The notes: generated by a model from the sequence alone, not told the origin. 64,000 bases of DNA from a bacterium (GCA_026129405.1 JAHCID010000003.1:59257-123256); one strand, 5' to 3'. Counted from the first letter of the stretch, positions 1,253 through 23,960 are shown. A program made the numbers and translations.

Positions 1253-2734
1253 TCAGGCCGTGCGGGGCGCCCCCCGGCGGCTCGGGTCGTCGGGCTGGTC
1301 GATGGCGTCGGTCCACAGCGCCGTCGCCGAGCGCCCCTCGGCCTGCGCCTGCTCCTCGAGGCTCGTGCGGACGTGGAGCAGGAGGTCGCCGAGGTGGTCG
1401 CGGGTGGCGTTGAGCGGAACGAGAAGGTCGCCGAGGGCCGCGCGGTCGCCGAGCGCGCCGGCGGCGTAGCGCTCGAGGACGTCGCTCTTCAGCGTCAGCA
1501 CCTCCTGCTGGAGGTCGACGAGCGGCTCCAGCGCGAGCGTCGCGGACAGCTCGAGCTCGGTGAGCCGCCGCTCGACGTCGGCCATGCGCCGCAGGTGAGT
1601 GGCGAACTCCTCGTCGCGCGCCGCCTGGCGGCGCTGGCGCCACCACTGCCACAGGAAGATGCTGCCGCCCGCGATCGCCCCGAGGACGCTGAACGTGTTG
1701 CCGAGCGTGTCGACGGTGTTCTCGGTGATGAACGGCTTGTCGCGGCGCAGGTACTCGATGGTGCCGTCGTGGCGTGGAAGCCGCGAGGGGAGGGCGAGCA
1801 GGCTCGGATCGAGCGGCGGCTGTGCGAGCCGGGCGACGTCGGCGCTGAACAGCGTCTCGAGCACGAGCTCGACCGTCTCGGGCGGCACCGACTCGTGCGC
1901 GACGAGGTTCAGGCGCGCGCCGATCGTCGGCAGCGGCTCGGCCGGGACGGGCGGCTGGCGCCGGTAGGTGAACGCCGGGATGACCGTGCCGGTCACGTGC
2001 TGGCGCTCGACGCTGGGCGTGGCCGGTCCGGGCTCGCTCGCGGCGAGCACCGCGTTCAGGCGGAACGCCTCGGCGAACGGGAGCGGGATCAGGCGGTAGT
2101 CGAAGCCGCGCACCAGCTCGAGCGCGAGCTCCGAGGGCAGGGTCGCGAGCAGCACCGTCGCGTCGGGCAGGGCGGCACGGTCGCCCGCGGCGATGAGGCG
2201 CTCGAGGTCGCCGAGGTCGATGTTGCGCGGCACGTAGCCGCTCTCGCCCGGCGTCGCGCCGGCGAACGCCAGCACGGCGGTGGCGAGGCCGGCGGTCGTC
2301 GAGCCGGGCGCGCCGAGGTCGACGACGTGCCCGCGCAGCCCTGCGAACCCGCCGGCGACGTCGTCGGCGAGCTCGGCCTTCACGAGGAAATGCACCGCCT
2401 CCATGTAGAGCGGCGTGACCTCGCGTACGTGCGGCACCTTGCCGGCACGGTAGGCTTCGGAGACGAGCGCGAAGTCGACGCGGCCCGCGTCGACGGCGTC
2501 GAGCTGGGTGTGTGCCTCGGGCATCGCCACGAGGCGCGCGGCGACGCCGCGCGCCTCGAGCGCATGCAGGATGGTGCGCGCGACGAGGGCGCGCGTGGTC
2601 CCGAGCGGGCCGGCCGTCAACGTGATGCGATGCACCGGCGGGCGGCGGTTCGCGATCAGCGTCACGGCCGCGAGCGCCATCGCGCCCAGGCCGAGCAGGA
2701 GCAGCACCCAGCTGCGCCGACGTCGCTCCATCAT
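1253..2734 (-). CDS. TAXI-family (TRAP-associated) periplasmic solute-binding protein-like, with N-terminal signal/anchor and C-terminal TM plus coiled-coil
   Basis: 493-aa ORF. N-terminal hydrophobic segment (WVLLLLGLGAMALAAVTLIA), then a binding-protein-like fold region (RVDFALVSEAYRAG..., TPLYMEAVHFLVK). A C-terminal TM (GAIAGGSIFLWQWW) is followed by a charged coiled-coil tail. Confidence 0.5.
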   Translation of the reverse strand: MMERRRRSWVLLLLGLGAMALAAVTLIANRRPPVHRITLTAGPLGTTRALVARTILHALEARGVAARLVAMPEAHTQLDAVDAGRVDFALVSEAYRAGKVPHVREVTPLYMEAVHFLVKAELADDVAGGFAGLRGHVVDLGAPGSTTAGLATAVLAFAGATPGESGYVPRNIDLGDLERLIAAGDRAALPDATVLLATLPSELALELVRGFDYRLIPLPFAEAFRLNAVLAASEPGPATPSVERQHVTGTVIPAFTYRRQPPVPAEPLPTIGARLNLVAHESVPPETVELVLETLFSADVARLAQPPLDPSLLALPSRLPRHDGTIEYLRRDKPFITENTVDTLGNTFSVLGAIAGGSIFLWQWWRQRRQAARDEEFATHLRRMADVERRLTELELSATLALEPLVDLQQEVLTLKSDVLERYAAGALGDRAALGDLLVPLNATRDHLGDLLLHVRTSLEEQAQAEGRSATALWTDAIDQPDDPSRRGAPRTA

Positions 2735-2947
2735 CCACCTCCCGCGCCGCGGTCGCCTACCATAACCCGGCCAGCGACCATGGTCGGGGCGCTGGCGCTT
2801 AATGGCAAGAGGCCCGCGGGGGCCGGTGCTATCCGAGCGCCGTCACGGGCGTGGTCGCGACCGTGACCAACGGTCGACGCGCGCGACGCCCGGAGGGCAC
2901 GCCGGTCTCGACCAGCAACGTATGGATCAGGCGAAAAGGAGAGTACG

Positions 2948-3383
2948 GATGCGACGAATCCTGGGAATGATGGCGGTGGTGGCGCTGGGTCTCGCGCTGG
3001 GCGTGGCGCAGGCCGAGGACAAGACGCCGGACGGCACCCTGAAGCTCGAAGGCGGCTCCATCGCGGCCGGCATCGGTCTCAGCTGGGGCAAGGGAACCCT
3101 TACCTACAAGGGCAAGGAGTACCCGGTCGAGGTGAAAGGGCTCTCCGTGGGCGACGTGGGCATCACCTCCATCGAGGCCTCCGGCAAGGTCTACAACCTC
3201 CAGAGCATCGGCGACTTCGACGGCAACTACACGGCCGTGGCCGCGGGCGCGACGGTGGCCGGCGGCGGCGCCATCAGCGCCATGCGCAACCAGGCGGGCG
3301 TGACGGTCGAGCTGGTGTCGACCACGCAGGGCATCAAGTTCGCCCTCGGGGGCGCCGGCGTCGACATGAAGATCAAGGAGTGA
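2948..3383 (+). CDS. small secreted Gly/Ala-rich protein (signal peptide), unknown function
   Basis: ATG at 2948 is preceded by aggag. Signal peptide MRRILGMMAVVALGLALGVAQA. The mature sequence is beta-strand-like (GTLTYKGKEYPVEVKGLSVGDVGITSIEASGKVYNLQSIGDF). The longer track ORF starting at 2802 has a poor N-terminus. Confidence 0.5.
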
Positions 3384-3396
3384 GGCGGTCGGCGAT

Positions 3397-3414
3397 CCGG
3401 GCCTGCCGGCCCGG
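3397..3414. terminator. GC-rich hairpin (7-bp stem ccgggcc/ggcccgg, 4-nt loop) 14 nt after the stop of the small secreted protein gene; no U-tract
   Basis: Read directly: ccgggcc tgcc ggcccgg. It could be a terminator-like or regulatory stem. Confidence 0.2.
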
Positions 3415-3634
3415 GTCGCCGACGGCGATCTCCCGCCTGCGTGCGCCGCGCCAACGCCCTTGGAGGGCCGCGACGCATGGTGTAGCAGAGCTCGGCGGTC
3501 CCCCGGTCGGATGTCCAGGGCGGGCCGCGAGCGGGGATCGAGCCTGTGCATGACGTGAGACCACGAGTCCCGGGCCAAACGCGGCGGCCGTCCTCTCGAC
3601 GGCGCGACGGCGTCCCCGGCCGAGCGTCGTCGCG

Positions 3635-4702
3635 GTGAGCGGCGAAGCCCGGGCGTCCGCGCCCGATGCGTCCGCGTCGCTCGCCGCGACGCCCGATGCG
3701 CCCGCGGTGGTCGCCGGCATCCGCCGGCTCGCGGTCCCGGGCTTCGCCCTCGGGGTGGCGTTGTTCACGGCGCTCCTCGTGCACGAGGGCGTCGGCGAGG
3801 TGCTCGCCGCGCTCGCCGTCGGCGGCTGGGGGCTCGTCGGCGTGGCGCTGTTCCACGTGGCGCCGATGGCGGCCGACGCCGCCGGCTGGCGCGCCCTGCT
3901 CGCCGCACCCGATCGGCCCGGGTTGGGCACGATGTTCTTCGCCCGCTGGGTCGGCGAGTCCGTGAACGGGCTCCTGCCCGCGATGCAGATCGGCGGCAAC
4001 GTCGCCAAGGCGCGCGTGCTCGTGCGCCGCGGCATGCCCGGGGCGACCGCGGGGGCGAGCGTGGTCGTCGACGTGACGCTGGTCATGGTGACGCAGATCG
4101 TCTTCACCGTCACCGGCCTCGTCCTTCTGCTGCTGCACGTCGGCGGGCGGACGATCGCGCCCACCGCAGCCGTCGGCCTCGGGCTCTCCGTGCTCGCGCT
4201 CGCGGGGTTCGTGCTGGCGCAGCGGCTCGGCGTCTTTGCGCGCGGCGCGCGCCTCTTGACCCGGGTCCGCGGCCCGAGCCCGCTCGCGGGCCTGGTCGAC
4301 GACGCCGTGGCGCTCGACGGGCGCGTCGCCGGGCTCTATCGCGAGCGCGGGCGGGTGGTCGCGGCGGCGGCATGGCACCTCGCGAGCTGGGCCGTCGGCG
4401 TCGGCGAGGTGTGGCTGGCGCTGTGGCTCCTCGGCCACCCGGTCGACCTGCTCTCGGCGATCATCCTCGAGAGCCTGGCGCAGGCCATCCGCGGCGCCGC
4501 GTTCGCGGTGCCTGCGGCGCTCGGCGTGCAGGAGGGCGGCCTCCTGCTCCTCGGCGCCGCGCTCGGCATCGCGCCGGACACCGCGCTCGCGCTGTCGCTG
4601 ACCAAGCGCGTGCGCGAGCTGACCCTCGGGCTGCCGGGGCTCGTCGCCTGGCAGCTGGACTGGACAGTGGATCGCCGCCGCGTCGGTGCGCGCTCGGCGT
4701 GA
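3635..4702 (+). CDS. UPF0104 / lysylphosphatidylglycerol-synthase-TM (flippase-like, HpnL-like) integral membrane protein
   Basis: 355 aa, about 8 predicted TM helices. Conserved features of the LPG_synthase_TM family (FFARWVGESVNGLLPAMQIGGNVAKARVL; AFAVPAALGVQEGGLLL). Confidence 0.6.
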   Translation: MSGEARASAPDASASLAATPDAPAVVAGIRRLAVPGFALGVALFTALLVHEGVGEVLAALAVGGWGLVGVALFHVAPMAADAAGWRALLAAPDRPGLGTMFFARWVGESVNGLLPAMQIGGNVAKARVLVRRGMPGATAGASVVVDVTLVMVTQIVFTVTGLVLLLLHVGGRTIAPTAAVGLGLSVLALAGFVLAQRLGVFARGARLLTRVRGPSPLAGLVDDAVALDGRVAGLYRERGRVVAAAAWHLASWAVGVGEVWLALWLLGHPVDLLSAIILESLAQAIRGAAFAVPAALGVQEGGLLLLGAALGIAPDTALALSLTKRVRELTLGLPGLVAWQLDWTVDRRRVGARSA

Positions 4703-4712
4703 TGGAGGATCG

Positions 4713-5942
4713 ATGAGCTCGCCCATCTCCCCGCTCGGCTCGCTCACGCGGGCGTTCAACAGGGGCGGTCGCGTGATCCAGCGCACGGGCGTCTCGCTGA
4801 TACGGCTCGAGCCCGAGGCGCTGCTCGACGAGGCGCGGCGTCGGGCCCGGCTCGAGGACTTCGACGAGGACGGCTTCCGCGAGGCGTTCCGGCGCGTCGT
4901 CCACTCGTTCGACCGCGAGGCGGGGCTGACGCTGCTCGGGCGCATCGCGGCGCGCCAGGATCTGCTGCGCCTGCTGAAGAGCCGCCTGCAGCTGGTCGAC
5001 GATCGCCGCCGCCATCCGGACATCGCGGCGGAGAGCGTGCGCCGGCCGATCTTCGTCACCGGCCTCCCGCGCACCGGCACGACGCTGCTGCACGGGCTCC
5101 TCGCCCAGGACCCCGCCAGCCGCGCACCGCTGCACTGGGAGAGCGTCTTCCCGTCGCCGCCGGACCGCTCCCGCGCGCGCGTGCGCCGGCGCATCGACGC
5201 CGCCGCGCGCCAGCTGCGCTGGTTCCACCGGCTGAACCCCGACATCCGGCGCATGCATCCCCTCGGCGCGACCCTGCCCGAGGAGTGCCTCATCATCACG
5301 AGCCACGCGTTCCTGAGCTACCAGTTCCAGACCTCGCACCACGTGCCGTCGTACCAGGCGTGGCTCGAGACCCAGGACCTGGTGCTCTGCTACGCCTGGC
5401 ACCGCCGCTTCCTCCAGCACCTCCAGTGGCGCGGCCGCGGCGAGCGCTGGGTGCTGAAGGCCCCGGCGCACCTCTTCGGCATCCCGGCGCTGTTCGCGAC
5501 CTATCCCGACGCCGCCGTGGTGTTCACGCATCGCGATCCCACCGAGGTGGCGGCGTCGCTCGCGAGCCTCACGACCTTCCTGCGCCGCACCTTCAGCGAC
5601 CAGGTCGATCCGCGCGCGGTGGGCACGGAGATGACGGCGCGCTGGGCGCGCGGCATCTACAAGGCGCTCGCGGACCGCGACGCCGGCTGTGCGCCCGCGG
5701 GGCAGTTCCTCGACGTGCGCTACACCGACCTCGTGCGCGATCCGATCGGCACCGTGCGCCACCTGTACGCGCACTTCGACATGCCGTTCACCGCCGTCGC
5801 CGAGGAGCGCATGCGCCGCTTCTTGGCCGCGAATCCCAAGGACAAGAACGGCCGCCACGTCTACACGCTCGGCGACTTCGGCCTCGACGCCGACGCCGAG
5901 CGGGCGCGCTACCGCGCCTATCTGGAGCGCTTCGGGCTCTAG
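4713..5942 (+). CDS. P-loop sulfotransferase family protein (PAPS-dependent)
   Basis: ATG 4713 follows ggagg. The 5'-PSB P-loop is PIFVTGLPRTGTTLLHGLL. A later segment reads RWVLKAPAHLFGIPALFATYPDAAVVFTHRDP. Typical Sulfotransfer_3-like architecture. Confidence 0.7.
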   Translation: MSSPISPLGSLTRAFNRGGRVIQRTGVSLIRLEPEALLDEARRRARLEDFDEDGFREAFRRVVHSFDREAGLTLLGRIAARQDLLRLLKSRLQLVDDRRRHPDIAAESVRRPIFVTGLPRTGTTLLHGLLAQDPASRAPLHWESVFPSPPDRSRARVRRRIDAAARQLRWFHRLNPDIRRMHPLGATLPEECLIITSHAFLSYQFQTSHHVPSYQAWLETQDLVLCYAWHRRFLQHLQWRGRGERWVLKAPAHLFGIPALFATYPDAAVVFTHRDPTEVAASLASLTTFLRRTFSDQVDPRAVGTEMTARWARGIYKALADRDAGCAPAGQFLDVRYTDLVRDPIGTVRHLYAHFDMPFTAVAEERMRRFLAANPKDKNGRHVYTLGDFGLDADAERARYRAYLERFGL

Positions 5943-7462
5943 CCGGCCTGGCACACGAGCGGCAGCTCGCGTGCCAGGTCGTGCCGCATCACCGCGTCCA
6001 GCAGCGCGAGCAGCTCGTCGCGCACGCGCACGCAGCCCGGGTCCGCCCAGCGGTTCACGAGCTCGCCCGGGTCCTCGCGCAGGTCGTAGAGCTCGCCGCC
6101 GTGCGGGTCGTGGACGCTCCTCGTGAGGCGGTGGGTGCGCGTCGTCAGGGTGCGGAACGCCATCGCGCCGCGCAGGATGTCGTCCTCGGTGAGGGCCCAC
6201 TCGCGCGGGCCGTCGAGCAGGCGGCGTCCCTCGACGGCCGCCGGGATGGGCAGCCCGCAGGCGTGCAGGATGGTCGGCGCGAGGTCGATGGTGCCGACCG
6301 GATCGGTCACCACGGCGCCGGGCGCGAAGCCCCGCCCGCGCACGAGGAGCGGCACGCGCAGCAGCGCCTCGTAGTGGATCGGGCCCTTCAGCATGAGCTG
6401 GTGCTCGCCGAGGAAGTCGCCGTGGTCGGCGGTGAAGAGGACGAGGGTGTCGTCGGCGAGCCCGCGGGCGGCGAGGGCGTCCAGGACGCGGCCGACGTTG
6501 TGGTCGAGGTGCGCCACCATGCCGTAGTAGGCGGCGAGGAGGCCGAGGCGCTCCGTCTCGGTGAGCCGCGCCCATCCGGGGTTCACCCACGCGAGCGGCG
6601 TGCCGCCGAAGCCCTCGGACCAGGTGCGGTGGAACATCGGCTTGCCGTCGAGCTCGGTCGGGTGCGCGCGCGGCAGCACCGGGAGCATGTCGGCCGGCTC
6701 GTAGCGGTCGCACCACGGGTGCGGCGGGTCGAAGGGATGGTGCGGGTCGGCGAAGCTGACCCAGCCGAAGAACGGCGGCTCGACGCCGCCGAGCCAGTCG
6801 ATCGCGCGGTCGGCGATCCAGGTGGTGTGATGGTCCTCGTCGGCGAGCGCGCTCTTCCACGTCTGGGTGTGGTCCCAGGTCGCGCCCGCCGCCTCGGGCT
6901 GCATGGCGCGGAGGCGCGCGACGCCGCGCGCGTGGCCGTCGCGGAAGAGATGGCGCCCGTAGTGGTGGCCGAGCGGCGGCGGGCCGAAGCCCCAGTTCCA
7001 GCGTCCCATCTCCGGCGCGAGCCGAATGTTGTGTACGTCGCTCACCAGCTCGACGTGGCGAAAGCCGAAGTACGGCCCCTGCCAGTCCGCGGGCAGGCGC
7101 GCGGAGTCGACCACCGACTCGACGCGGCCGCTCGGCAGATCGGGCCAGTACGACGCGAAATGCGCCTTGCCGAACAGCGCCGTGGCGAAGCCGGCCGCGC
7201 CGAGGCGGGTGGCGATCGAGTCGGCCTCGGCGTCGAGCGGCAGGTCCATGCCGTTGCGGATGACGCCGTGGGTGCTGGGATAGGTGCCGGTCAGGATCGT
7301 CGCGCGCGCCGGCTGGCAGAACGGGTTCTGCGTGCGGCACTGCGCGAAGCGCGTGCCGGCGGCGGCGAGCCGATCGAGGGCGGGCGTGGCGCCGAGGGGA
7401 TCGCCGTAGGAGCCGAGGGTGGTCGCCTTGTGCTGGTCGGTGGTGACGAGGAGGACGTTCAT
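5939..7462 (-). CDS. Cys-type sulfatase (arylsulfatase family)
   Basis: MNVLLVTTDQHKATTLGSYGDP is followed by the formylglycine motif C-Q-P-A-R (FCQPARATILTG) and metal-binding and catalytic segments (LFTADHGDFLGEH...GPIHYEALLRVPLLV). Its stop overlaps the convergent sulfotransferase stop. The real start is an internal Met of track ORF 5939..8440. Confidence 0.8.
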   Translation of the reverse strand: MNVLLVTTDQHKATTLGSYGDPLGATPALDRLAAAGTRFAQCRTQNPFCQPARATILTGTYPSTHGVIRNGMDLPLDAEADSIATRLGAAGFATALFGKAHFASYWPDLPSGRVESVVDSARLPADWQGPYFGFRHVELVSDVHNIRLAPEMGRWNWGFGPPPLGHHYGRHLFRDGHARGVARLRAMQPEAAGATWDHTQTWKSALADEDHHTTWIADRAIDWLGGVEPPFFGWVSFADPHHPFDPPHPWCDRYEPADMLPVLPRAHPTELDGKPMFHRTWSEGFGGTPLAWVNPGWARLTETERLGLLAAYYGMVAHLDHNVGRVLDALAARGLADDTLVLFTADHGDFLGEHQLMLKGPIHYEALLRVPLLVRGRGFAPGAVVTDPVGTIDLAPTILHACGLPIPAAVEGRRLLDGPREWALTEDDILRGAMAFRTLTTRTHRLTRSVHDPHGGELYDLREDPGELVNRWADPGCVRVRDELLALLDAVMRHDLARELPLVCQAG

Positions 7463-8172
7463 GGCCACGCGGACGGCGTCTCGCGGCCGAGGACCGGGCG
7501 CGCCGCCGCGAGGCGCGTGGCCGTCCAGATCGCGAACAGCGGCGCCCCGATCGCGGCCGCGGCGACGAACGGCTCGAGGTTCCCCGACCAGGTCACCGGC
7601 GCGACGAGGTAGAGGATGTCCTCGATCTCGAACGGACCGGCCGCGGGCTGGTCGAGCGCCGAGCGGCCCAGGCGCCGCGCCAGCTCCGAGCGGAGCAGGA
7701 AGATGGTCACGAACGAGATGCCGGCGACGAGGCCGAGGACGCCCGCCCAGCCGCCGAACAAGCCGTGGCGCATCCCGAATCCCATGCCCGCGAACACGGA
7801 CACCTTGACCACGAGGTCGGCGACGCGGTCGTAGACGTGGCCCAGCGGCGACGTCTTGCCGGTCATGCGGGCGAGCTCGCCGTCGGCATGGTCGAGCAGC
7901 GCGGAGAGGACGAACAGCGCGGCGCCCACGTGGGCCCAGCCGCCGCCCACGGCGAACGCCGCCGCGGCGGCGAGCCCGGTGCAGAGGCCGACGCTGGTCA
8001 GCTGGTTCGGCGTCACCGCCGTGTCGCGCAGCGGGCGGACGAGGGCGTTGGCGATGCGGCTGTCCCAGGGCTTCGTCGACGAGCTCACCTCGGAGCGCGT
8101 AGCGCATCCCGGGGGGCGCGTCCACGCGCGCGGACGTTGCATCCCGCGTGGCGTCGGCATACGCGTCGCCAC
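7459..8172 (-). CDS. CDP-alcohol phosphatidyltransferase family protein
   Basis: Signature D-x2-DG-x2-AR...G-x3-D-x3-D (DHADGELARMTGKTSPLGHVYDRVADLV), about 5 TM helices. Its stop overlaps the sulfatase ATG (ATGA), implying co-transcription. The true start within the ORF is uncertain. Confidence 0.6.
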   Translation of the reverse strand: MATRMPTPRGMQRPRAWTRPPGCATRSEVSSSTKPWDSRIANALVRPLRDTAVTPNQLTSVGLCTGLAAAAAFAVGGGWAHVGAALFVLSALLDHADGELARMTGKTSPLGHVYDRVADLVVKVSVFAGMGFGMRHGLFGGWAGVLGLVAGISFVTIFLLRSELARRLGRSALDQPAAGPFEIEDILYLVAPVTWSGNLEPFVAAAAIGAPLFAIWTATRLAAARPVLGRETPSAWP

Positions 8173-8174
8173 CG

Positions 8175-8534
8175 ATGCGACCCCTGTCGTGGCTCCTCGC
8201 CCTCTGCATGCTGGCGACGCCGGGCCTCGTCGCTGCGCACGCGGTGCTGACCGGCACCTCGATCGAGGGCGACCGCATTCCCGCCGGCGCCGAGACCACC
8301 GTCGTGCTCCGCTTCAACTCCGCCATCGAGCCGGCGCTGTCGTGCGTGGCCCTGGTCGACGCGCAGAAGGCGGAGCGCGTGCTGGCGTTGCACCCGGGCG
8401 CGGAGCCGGGACGGGTCGAGGTGACCGTGCCGGCGCTCACGCCGGGGGCGTACGGCCTGCACTACAAGATCTTCGCGGTCGACGGTCACGTGACCGAGAA
8501 CGTCGTGCGCTTCACGGCGGCGCCCGCCGACTGA
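8175..8534 (+). CDS. copC: CopC-family periplasmic copper-binding protein
   Basis: Signal peptide MRPLSWLLALCMLATPGLVAA, then a mature N-terminal His (HAVLTGTSIEGD...) and a cupredoxin-like beta sequence ending HYKIFAVDGHVTENVVRF. Confidence 0.65.
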   Translation: MRPLSWLLALCMLATPGLVAAHAVLTGTSIEGDRIPAGAETTVVLRFNSAIEPALSCVALVDAQKAERVLALHPGAEPGRVEVTVPALTPGAYGLHYKIFAVDGHVTENVVRFTAAPAD

Positions 8535-8537
8535 GCC

Positions 8538-10160
8538 GTGCTGGCGCTCGCCGACTTCGCCGACGGCCTGCTGCGCGGCACCGTGCTGGTGGCGCTCGCC
8601 GTGCTCGTGGGGGCGGTGCCGTGGGGGCTCGTCGTCCTGCGCGCCACGCGCCGGGCACCCGACGATCCGGGCGCGCGTCGCGCCGCCGGGCTCGTCGTCG
8701 GCTTCGCCGTGGTGCTGGCCGCCTGCCAGGCGACGCTCCTCGGCCTCAAGACGGTGGTGCTCACGAGCAACGTCGGGCCGGAGGCGTTCGGCGCGTTCGC
8801 GCACACGCTCCAGTTCCGCGGCGGCGCGGCACGGCTCGTCCTGGCGCTCGCCGTGATCGGGATCGGGCTCTTGCTGCGCGCCGCACCGAACGACGGGCGG
8901 CGTTGGGCGGCGCTCGGGCTCGCCGACCTCGCGCTGCTCGGGGCCGGCGCCGCGCTCGTGCACGCGGCCGGGCGGCTCGAGCATCGCGGCGCGCTCATGG
9001 CGCTCACCGTGCTGCACCAGGCGGCGGGCATCGTCTGGGTCGGTGGACTCGTGCAGCTCGTCGCGCTGGGCCGGCTCGCGCAGCGCGACACCCGCGCGGC
9101 GGCGCTCTGGCCGGACGCGGTGGGCCGCTTCGCCCGGGTGGCGATCGCGGCCGTCGTGCTGGCGACGCTCGCGTCGCTGCCGCTGGTGTGGATCTACGTC
9201 GGCGCGCTCGGCGGCCTCGTCGGCAGCGGCTACGGCTCGCTGGTCGTGGCCAAGCTGGCGCTCATGGGGGCGGCGCTCGCGTTCGGCGCCCGCAACTTCT
9301 TCGCCGGGCGCCGGCGCGACGGCGCCGACGGCCGGCGCACGCCGGCGCTGGTCGAGGCCGAGGCGCTCCTCCTCGTGACGCTCGTCTTCACGGCGGCGGC
9401 GCTCGCCTCGCAGCCGCCGTCGGTCGACACCCCCGAGACCCAGGCGACGCCGGCGGAGCTCGCCGAGGTGTTCCGCCCCAAGTGGCCGACGCTGACCACG
9501 CCGTCGATCGCGACCAAGCGCGCCCAGACCGCGGACCCGCTCGCCGTGGTCGGCAACGAGCGCACGCCCACGGCGTACTCGTGGTCGAATTTCAGCCACA
9601 ACGTCGCCGGCGTGTTCCTGCTCGTGATGAGCCTGCTCGCACTTCTGGGAACGAGCCGATACGCGCGCTGGGCGCGGCACTGGCCGCTCGGCCTCGTCGC
9701 CCTCGCCGTGTTCGTGTTCCTGCGCGCGAGCGCGAGCGACGGCACCTGGCCCTACGGCGACGTCGCCCCCTGGTCCGGCGACGCCGAAGGCCTCCAGCAC
9801 CGCATCGCCGCGCTGCTCGCGCTGCTGCTCGGCCTGCTCGAATGGCGGGCCCGCGCGGCGCGCGATCCCGGCCCGCTGGCGCGGCTCTTCCCGGCGCTGG
9901 CGGCGTTCGGGGGCATCCTCCTCCTCACGCACGCGCACGTCGCCTTCGAGGGGAAGAGCAGCTACCTCGTGCAGGTGACGCACGTCGTGATGGGCGTCCT
10001 CGCCGTGCTGCTCGCCGCCGGACGGTGGCTCGAGCTGCGGCTGCCGGGCCGCGCCGGCCGTATCGCCGGGGCGGCGTCGGGGGTGGCGATGCTGCTCGTC
10101 GCGCTGGTCCTTCTCTTCTACCGGGAAGCAAACGTCGTGGTGGGCCCGCTCCCAAGCTAG
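8538..10160 (+). CDS. CopD-family copper resistance membrane protein with about 230-aa C-terminal polytopic extension
   Basis: GTG start 4 nt after the copC stop. About 8 TM helices typical of CopD, plus 4 further TM helices with THAHVAFEG. Confidence 0.6.
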   Translation: MLALADFADGLLRGTVLVALAVLVGAVPWGLVVLRATRRAPDDPGARRAAGLVVGFAVVLAACQATLLGLKTVVLTSNVGPEAFGAFAHTLQFRGGAARLVLALAVIGIGLLLRAAPNDGRRWAALGLADLALLGAGAALVHAAGRLEHRGALMALTVLHQAAGIVWVGGLVQLVALGRLAQRDTRAAALWPDAVGRFARVAIAAVVLATLASLPLVWIYVGALGGLVGSGYGSLVVAKLALMGAALAFGARNFFAGRRRDGADGRRTPALVEAEALLLVTLVFTAAALASQPPSVDTPETQATPAELAEVFRPKWPTLTTPSIATKRAQTADPLAVVGNERTPTAYSWSNFSHNVAGVFLLVMSLLALLGTSRYARWARHWPLGLVALAVFVFLRASASDGTWPYGDVAPWSGDAEGLQHRIAALLALLLGLLEWRARAARDPGPLARLFPALAAFGGILLLTHAHVAFEGKSSYLVQVTHVVMGVLAVLLAAGRWLELRLPGRAGRIAGAASGVAMLLVALVLLFYREANVVVGPLPS

Positions 10161-19478: not shown

Positions 19479-19637
19479 GGTCGCCCGCGGGCCTGCGTCA
19501 TGGGAGCGCGTGCCTTCCCGCGCCTCGTGCGCACGAACGCTTCACGCGGATCGCGGCGCTTCGGCGCGATGCGGCCCAGCTGATCCGATCCGCAGACCGC
19601 CAGCGCAGCGACGAGCCGGGCGCGGCGCGGGCGGGAA

Positions 19638-19697
19638 GTGCGAAAGGGGGGACTTGAACCCCCACGGGTGTTTAGCCCACAGGATCCTGAATCGGTG
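19638..19697 (-). repeat. 60-bp direct repeat = 3' half of tRNA-Leu(CAG) (island attachment-site copy; lacks the tRNA 5' half)
   Basis: Identical to 23614..23673 (tgcgaaaggggggacttgaacccccacgggtgtttagcccacaggatcctgaatc). The sequence diverges immediately after the anticodon-loop position. Confidence 0.75.
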
Positions 19698-19786
19698 AGA
19701 TGCACCCCCCGCAGCGGTCAAAGCCGCGTCCAGCAACGATTCTGGATTCGGGCGAACCGCTGCGGGGGGCTCAAAACGCTGCTCCC

Positions 19787-19806
19787 AGGGCACGACAGGG
19801 CACGAC
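19787..19806 (+). repeat. tandem GGGCACGACA x2, putative integrase arm-type site (att-distal side)
   Basis: gggcacgaca gggcacgacg lies about 90 bp inside the island from the partial tRNA repeat. The same motif recurs three times at 23492-23540. Confidence 0.4.
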
Positions 19807-19848
19807 GCCGAAGCGCACAGGACGGGGATCCTGTAGCGCGCCCCGGCC

Positions 19849-20088
19849 TCAGGGAAAGGGCTCGGTCTGCATCCTGGCGGCCAGTCGCCAGTGCGCGAGG
19901 AGTCGGGACGTGCTGCCCCGCGCAGAGACCTGAACGTGCTGGCCGCGGCACATCCCATACGCTCTCCACGTGACCTTGCCCGTCTGGACGAGGCGGACCG
20001 CGCACTCCTCGCCGTCTACGTCCACCAACCACTCCGTGCTCGGGTAGCTTCCCATCAGCATCTCCCCTCTCCACGTCCCGTTGACCAC
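19849..20088 (-). CDS. hypothetical small protein (79 aa) inside the island
   Basis: ORF with protein-like composition (MGSYPSTEWLVDVDGEECAVRLVQTGKVTWRAYG). No recognisable family. Confidence 0.25.
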   Translation of the reverse strand: MVNGTWRGEMLMGSYPSTEWLVDVDGEECAVRLVQTGKVTWRAYGMCRGQHVQVSARGSTSRLLAHWRLAARMQTEPFP

Positions 20089-20443
20089 GCGCTACCGGCG
20101 TTCGCGCTGGTCGTCCACCTCCGAGCGATCAACCGGCGCCAGGCGGACCCGCCAACGAAACCGACCTCACAGGAGGCCGACGCTGGACCAGTTCGGCGCT
20201 GGCCGGGGCGCACGCGATGCCCTGACCGGGCGGGTTGCGCTTCGACGCGATCCGCCGCCCCTTCTCCGGCCTGAGCTGTCCTGTCTTCGGCGTGTGCTGG
20301 AACCCGCAGGAGCCCCGGCGCGATGCCGCCCGCCGTGTCCGTCGCCTTCCTCGAAGATCGGCGGGTGCTCTACGCCCCGGAGCAAATGGAGGTCGCCCCT
20401 TGACGATCTGTCGATCGTGGCTAGTTTTAACTGCCGCCGCCGG

Positions 20444-20780
20444 ATGGGCGGATGCGCGGTAGGAGGATTGGCGGATGAGGGCCGTCAAGGGGGTCGTTCG
20501 GGCGCGCTGCTGGGGGGAAAGCTGAGCGTGGGGGTCGCGCTGCAGCTTATTCCTGATGTCGATCAGGCGCTTGAGCTTCTCTTCGCGCATAAGCTTGAGT
20601 TCATCCGCGAGTTCCTCCGCGATAGGGAACTGCCGGTCAGCGGTTCGAAAGAGGAACTGCGCGAGCGTCTTCGGCAGGCCGTGGTGGGCGACTACGTGTC
20701 TGTGGGAGAGGTGCTGCTGTACCTCGACCAGATCGAGGGCTGGGGCGATCAGCACCTCTACCTCTACACGGTGCCGGAGG
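20444..20780 (+). pseudogene. SAP-motif ORF interrupted by the IS3 insertion (N-terminal part; reading frame resumes after the IS at 22090)
   Basis: Low-GC coding-like segment with a SAP-like motif (LEFIREFLRDRELPVSGSKEELRERLRQAV). It is truncated exactly at the IS left end. Joining 20780 to 22090 gives ...YTVPEVPAIGDLPVLTRDEQVHLLADLDAHG... in frame. Confidence 0.35.
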
Positions 20781-20830
20781 TGAACCGTCCCGGCTTTCCC
20801 GGAGGCTCCAGATGTTGAGAGGATGGAGCC

Positions 20831-22059
<1,229 letters not shown>

Positions 22060-22303
22060 CCCAGCCTCCGGCGAACCCGGGACGGTTCACTGCCCGCGAT
22101 CGGGGACTTGCCGGTGCTGACCCGCGACGAGCAGGTGCATCTTCTTGCCGACCTCGATGCGCATGGGGCGTCACGCGCTACTGCCCGGACGCCGTCGAGG
22201 CCGTCCGCCAGGTCCGGCGCCGTCCATCATCGTTGACGAGGGACGGCATGATCCCGGAGCATCGCGTCGCGGGAATGGCCCCACCACAGACACGGAGAGG
22301 CGA

Positions 22304-23575
22304 ATGAAGAAGAAGCCGCCCAGCAAAAGCTGGGGCTACGCGTACCGCCCGAAGGGGCGCGGCGACGTGCCGACGAGCATCTACTGGCTGAAGTTCAAGC
22401 GCACCGGCGACAGCGAGCCCACGCGCGAACGGACGAACCCGCCGACCAGCGACGAGAGAGAAGCCCAGCGGCAGCTGCATGCGCGGCTCGGCGAGACCCA
22501 GCAGGCGCGCATGGAGCGTCGGCAGAAGGATCACTGCGAGGGCGTCACCATCAACGACATCCTCGACCTGTACGTCATCGACTGCCGGCGCCTCGGGCGT
22601 CCCATCCAGCAGGGCCGCATCGAGCCGTGGCGGCACGAACTGGGCAACGCGCTGACGACCGAGGTGCAGGCCATCGACCTCGATGACCTCGCCGATCTGT
22701 GGCAGCGCCGCGGGCTCGTCTGGGACGGCGGCAGCCGCACGCTCCGGGACGGCAGCATCATCACCTGGGACGCGCGGGACCCGGCGCGTATCCGGCCCAT
22801 CTCAGGGGCCTCCGTGAATCGTCTGATGGCGAGCCTCCGCCGCAGCTACACCCTCGGGCGGAGTAAGCTCGGACTCTCCTACGTGCCGGTCTTCCCGCGG
22901 CAGCCGGAGTTCGCTCGCGACACCGATCTCGCCGAGGACGAGTGCTTGGCCATCGTACAGCACTTCAAAGCGAAGCGCGGCGCCGACGTGAAGGCGGACG
23001 TGTTCCGCCTCGGCTACCTGCTCGGCATTCGCAAGGGGCAGCTGCGCCGCACCCTCAAACGCTACGTGATGACGAACGCGACGCCGTGGCGCATCGACTG
23101 GCCGGGGGAGACCACCAAGAACAGGAAGGACCATCGCGTGGCGCTCCACGGGGAAGCGCTCGAGATCGTGCAGCGCGCCTGGGCGCGGCGCCGGCCGGAT
23201 GTCGACGAGCTGTTCCACGTAGACGGGGCGCCACTCGGCCCCATGACCTCTGAGCTGAAGCGGACCTGCGAGGCCGTCGCCGTCGCCTACGGGCGCACCA
23301 ACGGCATCACGTTCCACTCGACCCGGCACGCGGCGGTGACGAACCTCCTCGCCGCGGGCATCGACGCTGCCGCCGCCATGAGCATCACGGGGCACGTCGA
23401 CCCTTCGACGTTCCGGCGCTACCACGAGCGCCGCGACAGCGTGCAGACGGCGGCGCAGGAGAAGATGGCGGCGTACCTCGCGCAGCAACGCGGCACGACA
23501 GTCGCCGTGACGCAGCGTGAGGGCACGACAGGGCACGACAACGAGCCCGATTCCGGTCACGCGCTCCGCGCGTAG
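22304..23575 (+). CDS. tyrosine-type site-specific integrase (phage integrase family)
   Basis: ATG at 22304 after ggagagg. C-terminal catalytic box (HSTRHAAVTNLLAAGID...ITGHVDPSTFRRYHE: R-H-R-Y). The gene ends 38 nt before the tRNA 3' end. Confidence 0.8.
   Translation: MKKKPPSKSWGYAYRPKGRGDVPTSIYWLKFKRTGDSEPTRERTNPPTSDEREAQRQLHARLGETQQARMERRQKDHCEGVTINDILDLYVIDCRRLGRPIQQGRIEPWRHELGNALTTEVQAIDLDDLADLWQRRGLVWDGGSRTLRDGSIITWDARDPARIRPISGASVNRLMASLRRSYTLGRSKLGLSYVPVFPRQPEFARDTDLAEDECLAIVQHFKAKRGADVKADVFRLGYLLGIRKGQLRRTLKRYVMTNATPWRIDWPGETTKNRKDHRVALHGEALEIVQRAWARRRPDVDELFHVDGAPLGPMTSELKRTCEAVAVAYGRTNGITFHSTRHAAVTNLLAAGIDAAAAMSITGHVDPSTFRRYHERRDSVQTAAQEKMAAYLAQQRGTTVAVTQREGTTGHDNEPDSGHALRA
23492..23540 (+). 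repeat. three copies of GGCACGACA within 49 bp (putative integrase arm-type sites), inside the integrase 3' end
   Basis: cggcacgaca ... gggcacgaca gggcacgaca. The same 9-mer pair occurs at 19787-19806. Confidence 0.4.
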
Positions 23576-23613
23576 GATTGAGCGTCCTGTGGAAGAACAC
23601 TCGGTTAGGGAAT

Positions 23614-23699
<86 letters not shown>

Positions 23700-23960
23700 G
23701 GGACGACCCAAATAGCCGCAAGGTCCCGAGCGCACAAGTCGGACGGAGCCTGCGGAGGCGATGCCGAGGCGCAGCGCGTGCGCCGCGGCGAGCCGAAAAG
23801 GCTTCGCTCGCGTCGCGGTCGGCGCCGACGCCGAAGACGATCGGCGCGATCGCGTCGCGCCGGCCGCCCGCGAGGCGCGTGTGGTCCGCGTGAAGGGCAT
23901 CGGCCGGCGGGTGCGCGGCGCGGCGGCAGCGTCGCGCGCCGCCGTTCGGCACTCCGGGCT

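Follow-up and report, generated by a model that had tools for sequence, protein, structure and literature searches.

Hopanoids make up a major class of bacterial membrane lipids, and the most abundant molecular fossils derive from them; we know of no sulfotransferase among the described hpn genes. The HpnL family is defined by its association with hopanoid biosynthesis; its function is still given as unknown in two recent hopanoid papers (PMC12583986 among them), and hpnL is reported to be missing from alphaproteobacterial genomes without hpnH (PMC12583986). Among mycobacterial sulfotransferases, Stf3, a paralog of STF1 and STF9, sulfates hydroxylated menaquinone-9, an isoprenoid membrane lipid (PMC7404182). 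Here we analyse a locus at positions 3635–8172 of a 64-kb stretch of bacterial DNA (GCA_026129405.1, JAHCID010000003.1:59257-123256; the whole stretch, part of a 665,690-bp contig, is hereafter the window), for which an original prediction from sequence had proposed a four-gene module acting on a sulfated lipid head group. The closest named relatives of this locus are Candidatus Binatia, with sulfotransferase identity of 83–84% and full synteny. Its conserved core is a triad: a cytidine diphosphate (CDP)-alcohol phosphotransferase, an HpnL-family membrane protein, and an Stf-type sulfotransferase of the class dependent on 3′-phosphoadenosine 5′-phosphosulfate (PAPS).

We gathered 80 genome loci with a sulfotransferase profile, plus metagenome loci. 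Loci with a sulfotransferase at least 58% identical formed a Binatia-type clade, of which 18 had flanks of 4 kb or more to either side of the sulfotransferase gene. HpnL lies beside the sulfotransferase in 17 of these 18 full-flank loci, and a phosphotransferase lies within ~2.7 kb of it, likewise in 17 of 18. At least four gene orders occur: phosphotransferase, HpnL, sulfotransferase; HpnL, sulfotransferase, ABC-2 permease, phosphotransferase; phosphotransferase, sulfatase, HpnL, sulfotransferase; and the convergent order of the window. At least four loci (L022, L024, L026 and L091) have a single uninterrupted open reading frame (ORF) of 548–592 aa in which the phosphotransferase, its catalytic motif intact, is fused to HpnL. 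A search with the window HpnL against 1.84 billion representative proteins gave as top match another fusion (P0361, 551 aa), the N-terminal 192 residues of which match the window phosphotransferase at 58% identity; in the window itself the two proteins are encoded separately, on opposite strands. Because its members are co-conserved in several orders and two of them are fused, the triad is a true functional unit, and chance adjacency was rejected for it on account of the fusions together with the multiple conserved arrangements. An ABC-2 permease gene follows the sulfotransferase gene in 10 of the 18 full-flank loci. Among sulfotransferase loci outside the Binatia-type clade, the phosphotransferase-family profile was found in L060 only.

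On the strength of co-conservation and fusions, these results bear out the proposal of functional linkage in a module that would serve a polar, sulfated membrane lipid, and narrow its conserved core. Lack of co-conservation in related genomes had been named as grounds for rejecting the proposal, and three of the four genes came through that check strongly. The sulfatase lies outside the conserved core, its ortholog being present in 3 of the 18 full-flank loci and in one subclade.

The four genes themselves are arranged as first described, in two facing pairs. On the plus strand, the HpnL-family integral membrane protein (3635..4702, 355 aa; PF03706, LPG_synthase_TM, an MprF-flippase-like transmembrane region, 3.6e-25) is followed by the soluble sulfotransferase (4713..5942, 409 aa; PF13469, Sulfotransfer_3, 1.1e-49). 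On the minus strand, the CDP-alcohol phosphotransferase (7459..8142, 227 aa; PF01066, CDP-OH_P_transf, 4.9e-15) is followed by a Cys-type (formylglycine) sulfatase-family hydrolase (5939..7462, 507 aa; PF00884, 3.3e-42). The window has a G+C content of ~73%, and G+C at third codon positions (GC3) is 0.95–0.97 in all four ORFs, with second-position values of ~0.5–0.58; given the third-position values, all four are genuine genes, and the Pfam matches agree. Each of the junctions described earlier could be read directly in the sequence. The HpnL stop (TGA, 4700–4702) is separated from the sulfotransferase ATG at 4713 by a 10-nt spacer that holds a ribosome-binding site, GGAGGA, at 4704..4709 on the plus strand; in relatives these two genes overlap by 4 bp. 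The sulfotransferase stop (TAG, 5940–5942) and the minus-strand sulfatase stop (5939–5941) have in common the CTAG at 5939..5942, where the two units converge. The sulfatase ATG (7462–7460) overlaps the phosphotransferase TGA (7461–7459) to form an ATGA at 7459..7462 on the minus strand, an arrangement of translational coupling. The far boundary needed revision. The phosphotransferase had been given as extending to 8172, and its ORF is indeed open to that position, but the start is probably either ATG 8142, giving 227 aa and identity to NCBI MCW5891414.1, or GTG 8088, giving 209 aa as in relatives. Searches for a terminator-like hairpin and a sigma-70-like promoter gave none in 2700–8700, a result that is uninformative at 73% GC.

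The membrane protein had been called a flippase-like UPF0104 (LPG-synthase transmembrane) protein. Its place in PF03706 stands, and within that family it belongs to the HpnL subfamily, scoring 333.8 bits on TIGR03476 against a cutoff of 195.65, over model positions 2–316 of 318. It has at least six hydrophobic segments and a GC3 of 0.96. Orthologs beside the sulfotransferase in other loci scored 273–341 bits on the same model, and HpnL proteins from true hopanoid clusters scored 312–322 bits, the same range as Binatia HpnL. Orthologs in L029 and L051–54 do lie near hopanoid biosynthesis genes. Comparison by sequence with solved structures gave no meaningful match, so the putative MprF-like fold of HpnL is taken from Pfam alone.

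The sulfotransferase, identical to NCBI MCW5891412.1, contains the P-loop GLPRTGTT, which aligns with GLVRTGTT of Mycobacterium tuberculosis STF1 (2zq5). The alignment with STF1 covers 360 residues, P-loop included, at 35% identity (E 3.4e-61). An AlphaFold2 model (predicted local distance difference test score, pLDDT, 74) gave template modelling (TM) scores of 0.77/0.86 to 2zq5 and 0.77/0.80 to M. avium STF9 (2z6v). Residues P119, R120, G122, T123, T124, R274 and S282 are invariant in 23 homologs, and R274 and S282 would form the 3′-phosphate-binding site. Neither a hydrophobic (transmembrane) segment nor a signal peptide was found in the sulfotransferase or in the sulfatase; on these grounds both enzymes should be cytoplasmic. 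The product of 4713–5942 is thus a PAPS-dependent Stf-type sulfotransferase by class, with sulfate transfer as its predicted activity, and we infer its acceptor from the context described below.

Candidate sources of a hydroxyl group were noted near some of these genes. An AurF-like di-iron oxygenase gene follows the sulfotransferase gene in five Binatia-type loci (L003/L077, L011, L014, L089 and L090), usually at a spacing of at most ~115 bp and at 1.3 kb in L014, and a gene of the fatty-acid-hydroxylase superfamily lies ahead of the phosphotransferase gene in L092. By analogy with CYP128, which serves Stf3, such an oxygenase or hydroxylase homolog could supply the hydroxyl that is sulfated.

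We clustered the neighbours of all 80 sulfotransferase loci and annotated representatives. Setting aside the Binatia-type clade (24 genome loci) and a Chthoniobacterales clade (20 loci) left 36 loci. Hopanoid core genes (Shc and HpnA, B, G, H, I, J, K, M and N) were present within 10 kb of the sulfotransferase gene in 23 of these 36, and either core genes or HpnL in 30. Genes of PAPS synthesis, either adenylylsulfate kinase (CysC) or CysD, were nearby in 12 of the 36. HpnN (890 bits against a cutoff of 752) was found at 21 loci, at a median distance of 390 bp from the sulfotransferase gene; HpnA (477 against 368) at 14 loci, at a median of 61 bp; and HpnM (158 against a cutoff of 160) at 13 loci, at a median of ~3.7 kb. 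In the Rokubacteria/Methylomirabilota loci L035 and L044, the sulfotransferase gene is adjoined by HpnJ (724 bits, cutoff 578), HpnK (311, cutoff 233) and HpnI (334, cutoff 310). The fullest example is a complete Wenzhouxiangellaceae chromosome (L066), where the genes run in the order farnesyl diphosphate synthase, squalene synthase, Shc (775 bits), HpnG, HpnM, HpnN, HpnA, sulfotransferase, mevalonate pathway, HpnH (531 bits) and HpnB, which places the sulfotransferase gene between HpnA and the mevalonate genes; the Shc and HpnH scores are above the model cutoffs. The window sulfotransferase is 55–57% identical to the copies beside HpnN, HpnM and HpnA, and on a neighbour-joining tree, clades with hopanoid context surround the Binatia-type sulfotransferases.

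A second tight triad was noted in Nitrospira-type loci (L029, L037, L038, L040, L058 and L059), where the sulfotransferase and HpnL genes flank or adjoin a gene for a PigE-like class-III aminotransferase. The layout resembles that of the Binatia triad, another enzyme for the head group taking the place of the phosphotransferase, and would be a hint of amino-hopanoids that carry sulfate should the aminotransferase be HpnO-like. Some Binatia-type loci also have a class-III aminotransferase gene near the triad; a single conserved partner across the two groups was considered and rejected, since the Binatia-type and Nitrospira-type copies are only 26–30% identical.

Because the HpnL-sulfotransferase pair lies inside hopanoid clusters of other phyla, beside PAPS-synthesis genes, we take a bacteriohopanepolyol-type lipid as the most likely acceptor. 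Our favoured reading, to which we give a probability of roughly 0.45, is that the triad builds, sulfates and translocates a polar membrane lipid, most likely of bacteriohopanepolyol type or a phospho-derivative of one. The phosphotransferase, which like HpnL is a polytopic membrane protein, would act on the cytoplasmic side of the inner membrane, joining a head group through a phosphodiester to an alcohol that is either a lipid or a polyol. The soluble sulfotransferase, translationally coupled to HpnL, would then move sulfate from PAPS onto a lipid hydroxyl, and HpnL, which in its transmembrane region shares homology with the flippase half of MprF, would take the now strongly anionic product to the outer leaflet. 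Export may be carried further by the ABC-2 permease in many relatives, and in the closest relative also by an ABC ATPase, an MlaC/HpnM-like protein and an outer-membrane channel. In one subclade, the added sulfatase, coupled to the phosphotransferase, would remove sulfate on the cytoplasmic side. More tentatively, we propose that the HpnL-sulfotransferase pair as a whole is a hopanoid-tailoring branch, in which PAPS-dependent sulfation of bacteriohopanepolyols would yield anionic sulfated hopanoids and HpnL would flip charged head groups; Binatia would have recruited the phosphotransferase, sometimes fused, for a phospho-sulfo hopanoid or polyol lipid without known counterpart.

Several observations weigh against a hopanoid product in Binatia. 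No hopanoid core gene (Shc, HpnH, HpnN, HpnA, HpnG, HpnM or HpnB) was found in the 64-kb window, nor within 10 kb in the 24 Binatia-type genome loci, and no PAPS gene was found in the window or near Binatia-type loci. The phosphotransferase family is absent from all loci with hopanoid core genes, its nearest structural relatives make inositol-phosphate glycerolipids or solutes rather than hopanoid derivatives, and we know of no phospho-hopanoid. A protein search with Shc from L039 returned, among the matches listed, only Thermodesulfobacteriota-like cyclases (at least 69% identity) and none labelled Binatia; literature on Binatota or Binatia together with hopanoid or squalene gave nothing informative. 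The 20 loci of the Chthoniobacterales sulfotransferase clade have no hopanoid or lipid context, and all functional assignments made here rest on homology and gene context. The absence of hopanoid and PAPS genes near Binatia-type loci, together with that of the phosphotransferase from hopanoid-core loci, suggests that the Binatia module may have retained the HpnL-sulfotransferase pair but changed the lipid, a switch of substrate.

The Chthoniobacterales/Verrucomicrobia clade (L047, L056 and L061–L086), 44–51% identical to the window protein, has a conserved neighbourhood of its own and unrelated, with 6-phosphogluconolactonase, FabG and a protein that is MsrA-like by eye. These sulfotransferases probably have a different acceptor.

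The catalytic motif of the phosphotransferase, D(x2)DG(x2)AR(x8)G(x3)D(x3)D, is exact and lies at 7816–7893 (DHADGELARMTGKTSPLGHVYDRVAD); D84, D87, G88, A91, R92, G101 and D105 are invariant in 27 homologs, D109 nearly so, and the protein carries the family-specific invariant block QP..GFE.EDxLY..P.TW. All equivalog models scored far below cutoff, the best being archaetidylinositol-phosphate synthase (56.1 bits against 180), with the phosphatidylinositol phosphate (PIP) synthase model PIPS at 42.7 against 170, PgsA at 23 against 109 and PssA at 24 against 107. An AlphaFold2 model (pLDDT 87.5) had AF2299 as nearest fold (TM 0.70), followed by PIP synthases (mycobacterial and Renibacterium PIPS) and DIPPS; across these relatives the TM scores were 0.57–0.70 and identities 18–24%, and the phosphatidylglycerophosphate (PGP) and phosphatidylserine (PS) synthases were much further away. 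The 120 closest homologs listed were all at least 48% identical to the phosphotransferase, and in both of the two whose context was examined the HpnL and sulfotransferase genes adjoin it.

These affinities lead to the principal rival, a sulfated glycerophospholipid with no hopanoid involved. In this scheme CDP-diacylglycerol and a polyol phosphate (glycerol-3-phosphate or inositol-1-phosphate) would be joined, the head group sulfated and the product flipped by HpnL, giving either a bacterial counterpart of haloarchaeal phosphatidylglycerosulfate or a sulfated phosphatidylinositol. It comports with the nearest folds and models just listed (PIP synthases, archaetidylinositol-phosphate synthase, AF2299, DIPPS), with the lack of hopanoid genes near every Binatia-type locus, with the restriction of the phosphotransferase to the Binatia-type clade, and with the known occurrence of phosphatidylglycerosulfate in haloarchaea. 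The PF03706 domain, moreover, is known from MprF, which uses it to carry a derivative of phosphatidylglycerol, and flipping by HpnL would resemble that of lysyl-phosphatidylglycerol by MprF. We judge the scheme a serious rival but somewhat less likely than the hopanoid reading: the membrane protein scores on the HpnL model as strongly as copies in true hopanoid clusters, hpnL is reported missing from alphaproteobacterial genomes without hpnH in the paper cited above, the sulfotransferase is 55–57% identical to copies beside HpnN, HpnM and HpnA, and the PIP, PGP and PS synthase equivalog scores are far below cutoff. The proposal of lipid head-group synthesis, sulfation and translocation is thus upheld as to a polar sulfated lipid, and loosened as to its phospholipid nature: with HpnL and the sulfotransferase family embedded in hopanoid clusters of other phyla, the product may not be a glycerophospholipid.

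A soluble product is far less probable than either lipid. DIPPS and AF2299, both among the nearest folds, act on soluble CDP-alcohols, and the sulfatase resembles choline sulfatase, an enzyme of a soluble osmolyte; a DIPPS-like phosphotransferase might thus make a sulfated compound such as an inositol-phosphate-type compatible solute, to be exported with no membrane lipid formed. Yet the Pfam-annotated loci of the relatives showed no gene for a cytidylyltransferase or for inositol-phosphate synthase, the partners are HpnL, the ABC-2 permease, MlaC/HpnM-like proteins and, in other phyla, the hopanoid transporter HpnN, and the closest characterised relatives of the sulfotransferase act on lipids.

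The sulfatase was correctly recognised as Cys-type. Its motif, FCQPARATILTG, has CQPAR beginning at Cys49 (codon 7316–7318, minus strand), and both family signatures are present, CQPARATILTG (C-x-P-x-R, then LTG) and GFATALFGKAH (G-x6-G-K-x-H), within a PF00884 match of 145 bits. Its nearest families are arylsulfatase, PehA (second-best NCBIfam match, 170.6 bits) and choline sulfatase, all below cutoff, and its nearest Protein Data Bank (PDB) entries are 6pt4, 4upl, 7oz8 and 4upk; it groups with cytoplasmic formylglycine hydrolases, namely choline sulfatase and phosphonate monoester hydrolases. A regular-expression search of every frame of the 64-kb window found neither of two motifs typical of formylglycine-generating enzyme, RGGS[WFY] and N[VLIA][WYF]EW. 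Orthologs (73–88% identical) occur only in the window, L007, L008, L009, L015 and L021, a single subclade of the sulfotransferase tree. In every carrier, across three arrangements, the gene is directly downstream of that for the phosphotransferase, and it never follows the sulfotransferase gene. The sulfatase is therefore a lineage-specific accessory of the module, tied to the phosphotransferase more than to the sulfotransferase. In L015 and L021, where the order is phosphotransferase, sulfatase, sulfotransferase, no HpnL gene was found within 10 kb; in these loci the protein may be dispensable, or its gene may lie in some other place.

The most likely role of the sulfatase is in turnover or recycling, taking sulfate off molecules on the cytoplasmic side; trimming of a phosphoester is an alternative. 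That it does not reverse the sulfotransferase at all, being either an unrelated sulfur-scavenging enzyme or a phosphoester hydrolase acting on the phosphotransferase product, we find less likely, although the idea draws on its rarity among full-flank loci and its constant position behind the phosphotransferase (with the ATGA in the window, and the same order in L009, L015 and L021). PehA, the second-best match, is a phosphoric/sulfuric ester hydrolase, and the closest structures include phosphonate monoester hydrolases. After synthases of the PGP and PIP type, a hydrolase has to take off the terminal phosphate, and in this reading the enzyme would, for example, do so in the manner of PGP and PIP phosphatases. 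On the other side stand its full Cys-type sulfatase signature, its cytoplasmic location like that of the sulfotransferase, and its persistence beside the module through three rearrangements within one monophyletic subclade, evidence that the adjacency is not due to chance.

Genes around the four are unrelated to them by annotation: an EipA-like periplasmic protein and a TAXI-like binding protein upstream, and CopC, CopD and an RND efflux system downstream. The CopC-like gene (8148 or 8175 to 8534; Pfam CopC, 1.1e-13) and a gene for a 540-aa CopD-like protein (8538–10160; CopD, 6.4e-14) form a plus-strand pair, 8148..10160, divergent from the phosphotransferase gene. In 11 of 28 Binatia-type loci the sulfotransferase gene has a CopD homolog no more than 4 kb away, and homologs 49–56% identical are found beside the sulfotransferase in two separate clades; in L034, L049 and L063 it abuts HpnN, with neither phosphotransferase nor HpnL. 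This recurrence in two clades suggests that the CopD-like membrane protein is functionally linked to the lipid module.

In the closest relative (L001/L007, 2070–6104), genes for an ABC ATPase, an MlaC/HpnM-like protein, an ABC-2 permease and an outer-membrane channel lie between the TAXI-like and EipA-like genes. The same interval in the window (2735–2948) is only a 214-bp gap; the two close relatives differ here by an indel of a putative cassette for lipid export. The best model for the MlaC-like protein was HpnM, at 60.6 bits against a cutoff of 160, and given that score it adds only weakly to the hopanoid case. Further along the window, GC dips to 0.67–0.70 at 19500–23700, and a tyrosine recombinase ORF (22304–23575, plus strand) abuts a tRNA-Leu(CAG) gene (23613–23697, minus strand), probably marking a small integrated element.

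The individual enzyme families are known, while the combination and its predicted product have not been described: as had been suspected, we found no account of this operon or gene set in the literature. A full-text search for "sulfated hopanoid" and related phrases found none, no paper linking hopanoids with a sulfotransferase was found in the excerpts of papers that mention both, and a recent preprint on shc gene neighbourhoods makes no mention of sulfotransferases. Sulfated hopanoids may escape common positive-ion analyses of acetylated extracts. If the hopanoid reading is true, a sulfated class would exist in Nitrospira, Methylomirabilota, Wenzhouxiangellaceae and Binatia, biohopanoid inventories would be incomplete, and HpnL would gain a concrete role where recent hopanoid papers assign none. 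Should hopanoids play no part, a pathway to a sulfated phospholipid in bacteria, with its own flippase, would be new all the same. In either case a CDP-alcohol phosphotransferase-flippase pairing parallel to MprF has been identified.

Set against known systems, the sulfotransferase has the fold and PAPS-binding motifs of mycobacterial STF1 and STF9, and Stf3, which with CYP128 makes sulfomenaquinone, provides a case of sulfation at the hydroxyl of an isoprenoid membrane lipid; in the mycobacterial system, however, the partner is a P450, whereas the partners of the window family are HpnL, the CDP-alcohol phosphotransferase and hopanoid genes, in diderm environmental hosts. The phosphotransferase has the exact catalytic motif and six-helix fold of PIP synthase, AF2299 and DIPPS but, at 18–24% identity, falls below every equivalog cutoff. 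The sulfatase resembles BetC, phosphonate monoester hydrolases and PehA in its CxPxR motif and want of a signal peptide, but differs in scoring below the equivalog cutoffs and in having lipid-synthesis genes as partners. Haloarchaeal phosphatidylglycerosulfate, a phospholipid with a sulfate ester on its head group, shows the chemistry first proposed for this locus, but is an archaeal ether lipid, and we know of no biosynthetic genes assigned to it. MprF likewise combines a head-group-modifying enzyme with a PF03706 domain, in one polypeptide as in the phosphotransferase-HpnL fusions; it differs in that its enzyme is a tRNA-dependent aminoacyl transferase, as opposed to a CDP-alcohol phosphotransferase with a sulfotransferase, and the domain order is reversed. 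Pfam found no MprF synthase domain here, and no PDB match to MprF was found at sequence level, so that MprF would serve as an analogy for the module and not as a family to which it belongs. The hpn clusters contain this same sulfotransferase family in Wenzhouxiangellaceae, Nitrospira, Methylomirabilota/Rokubacteria and others, and share with the window a protein scoring above the HpnL model cutoff; the Binatia-type pair differs in being detached from every hpn gene and joined instead to a CDP-alcohol phosphotransferase.

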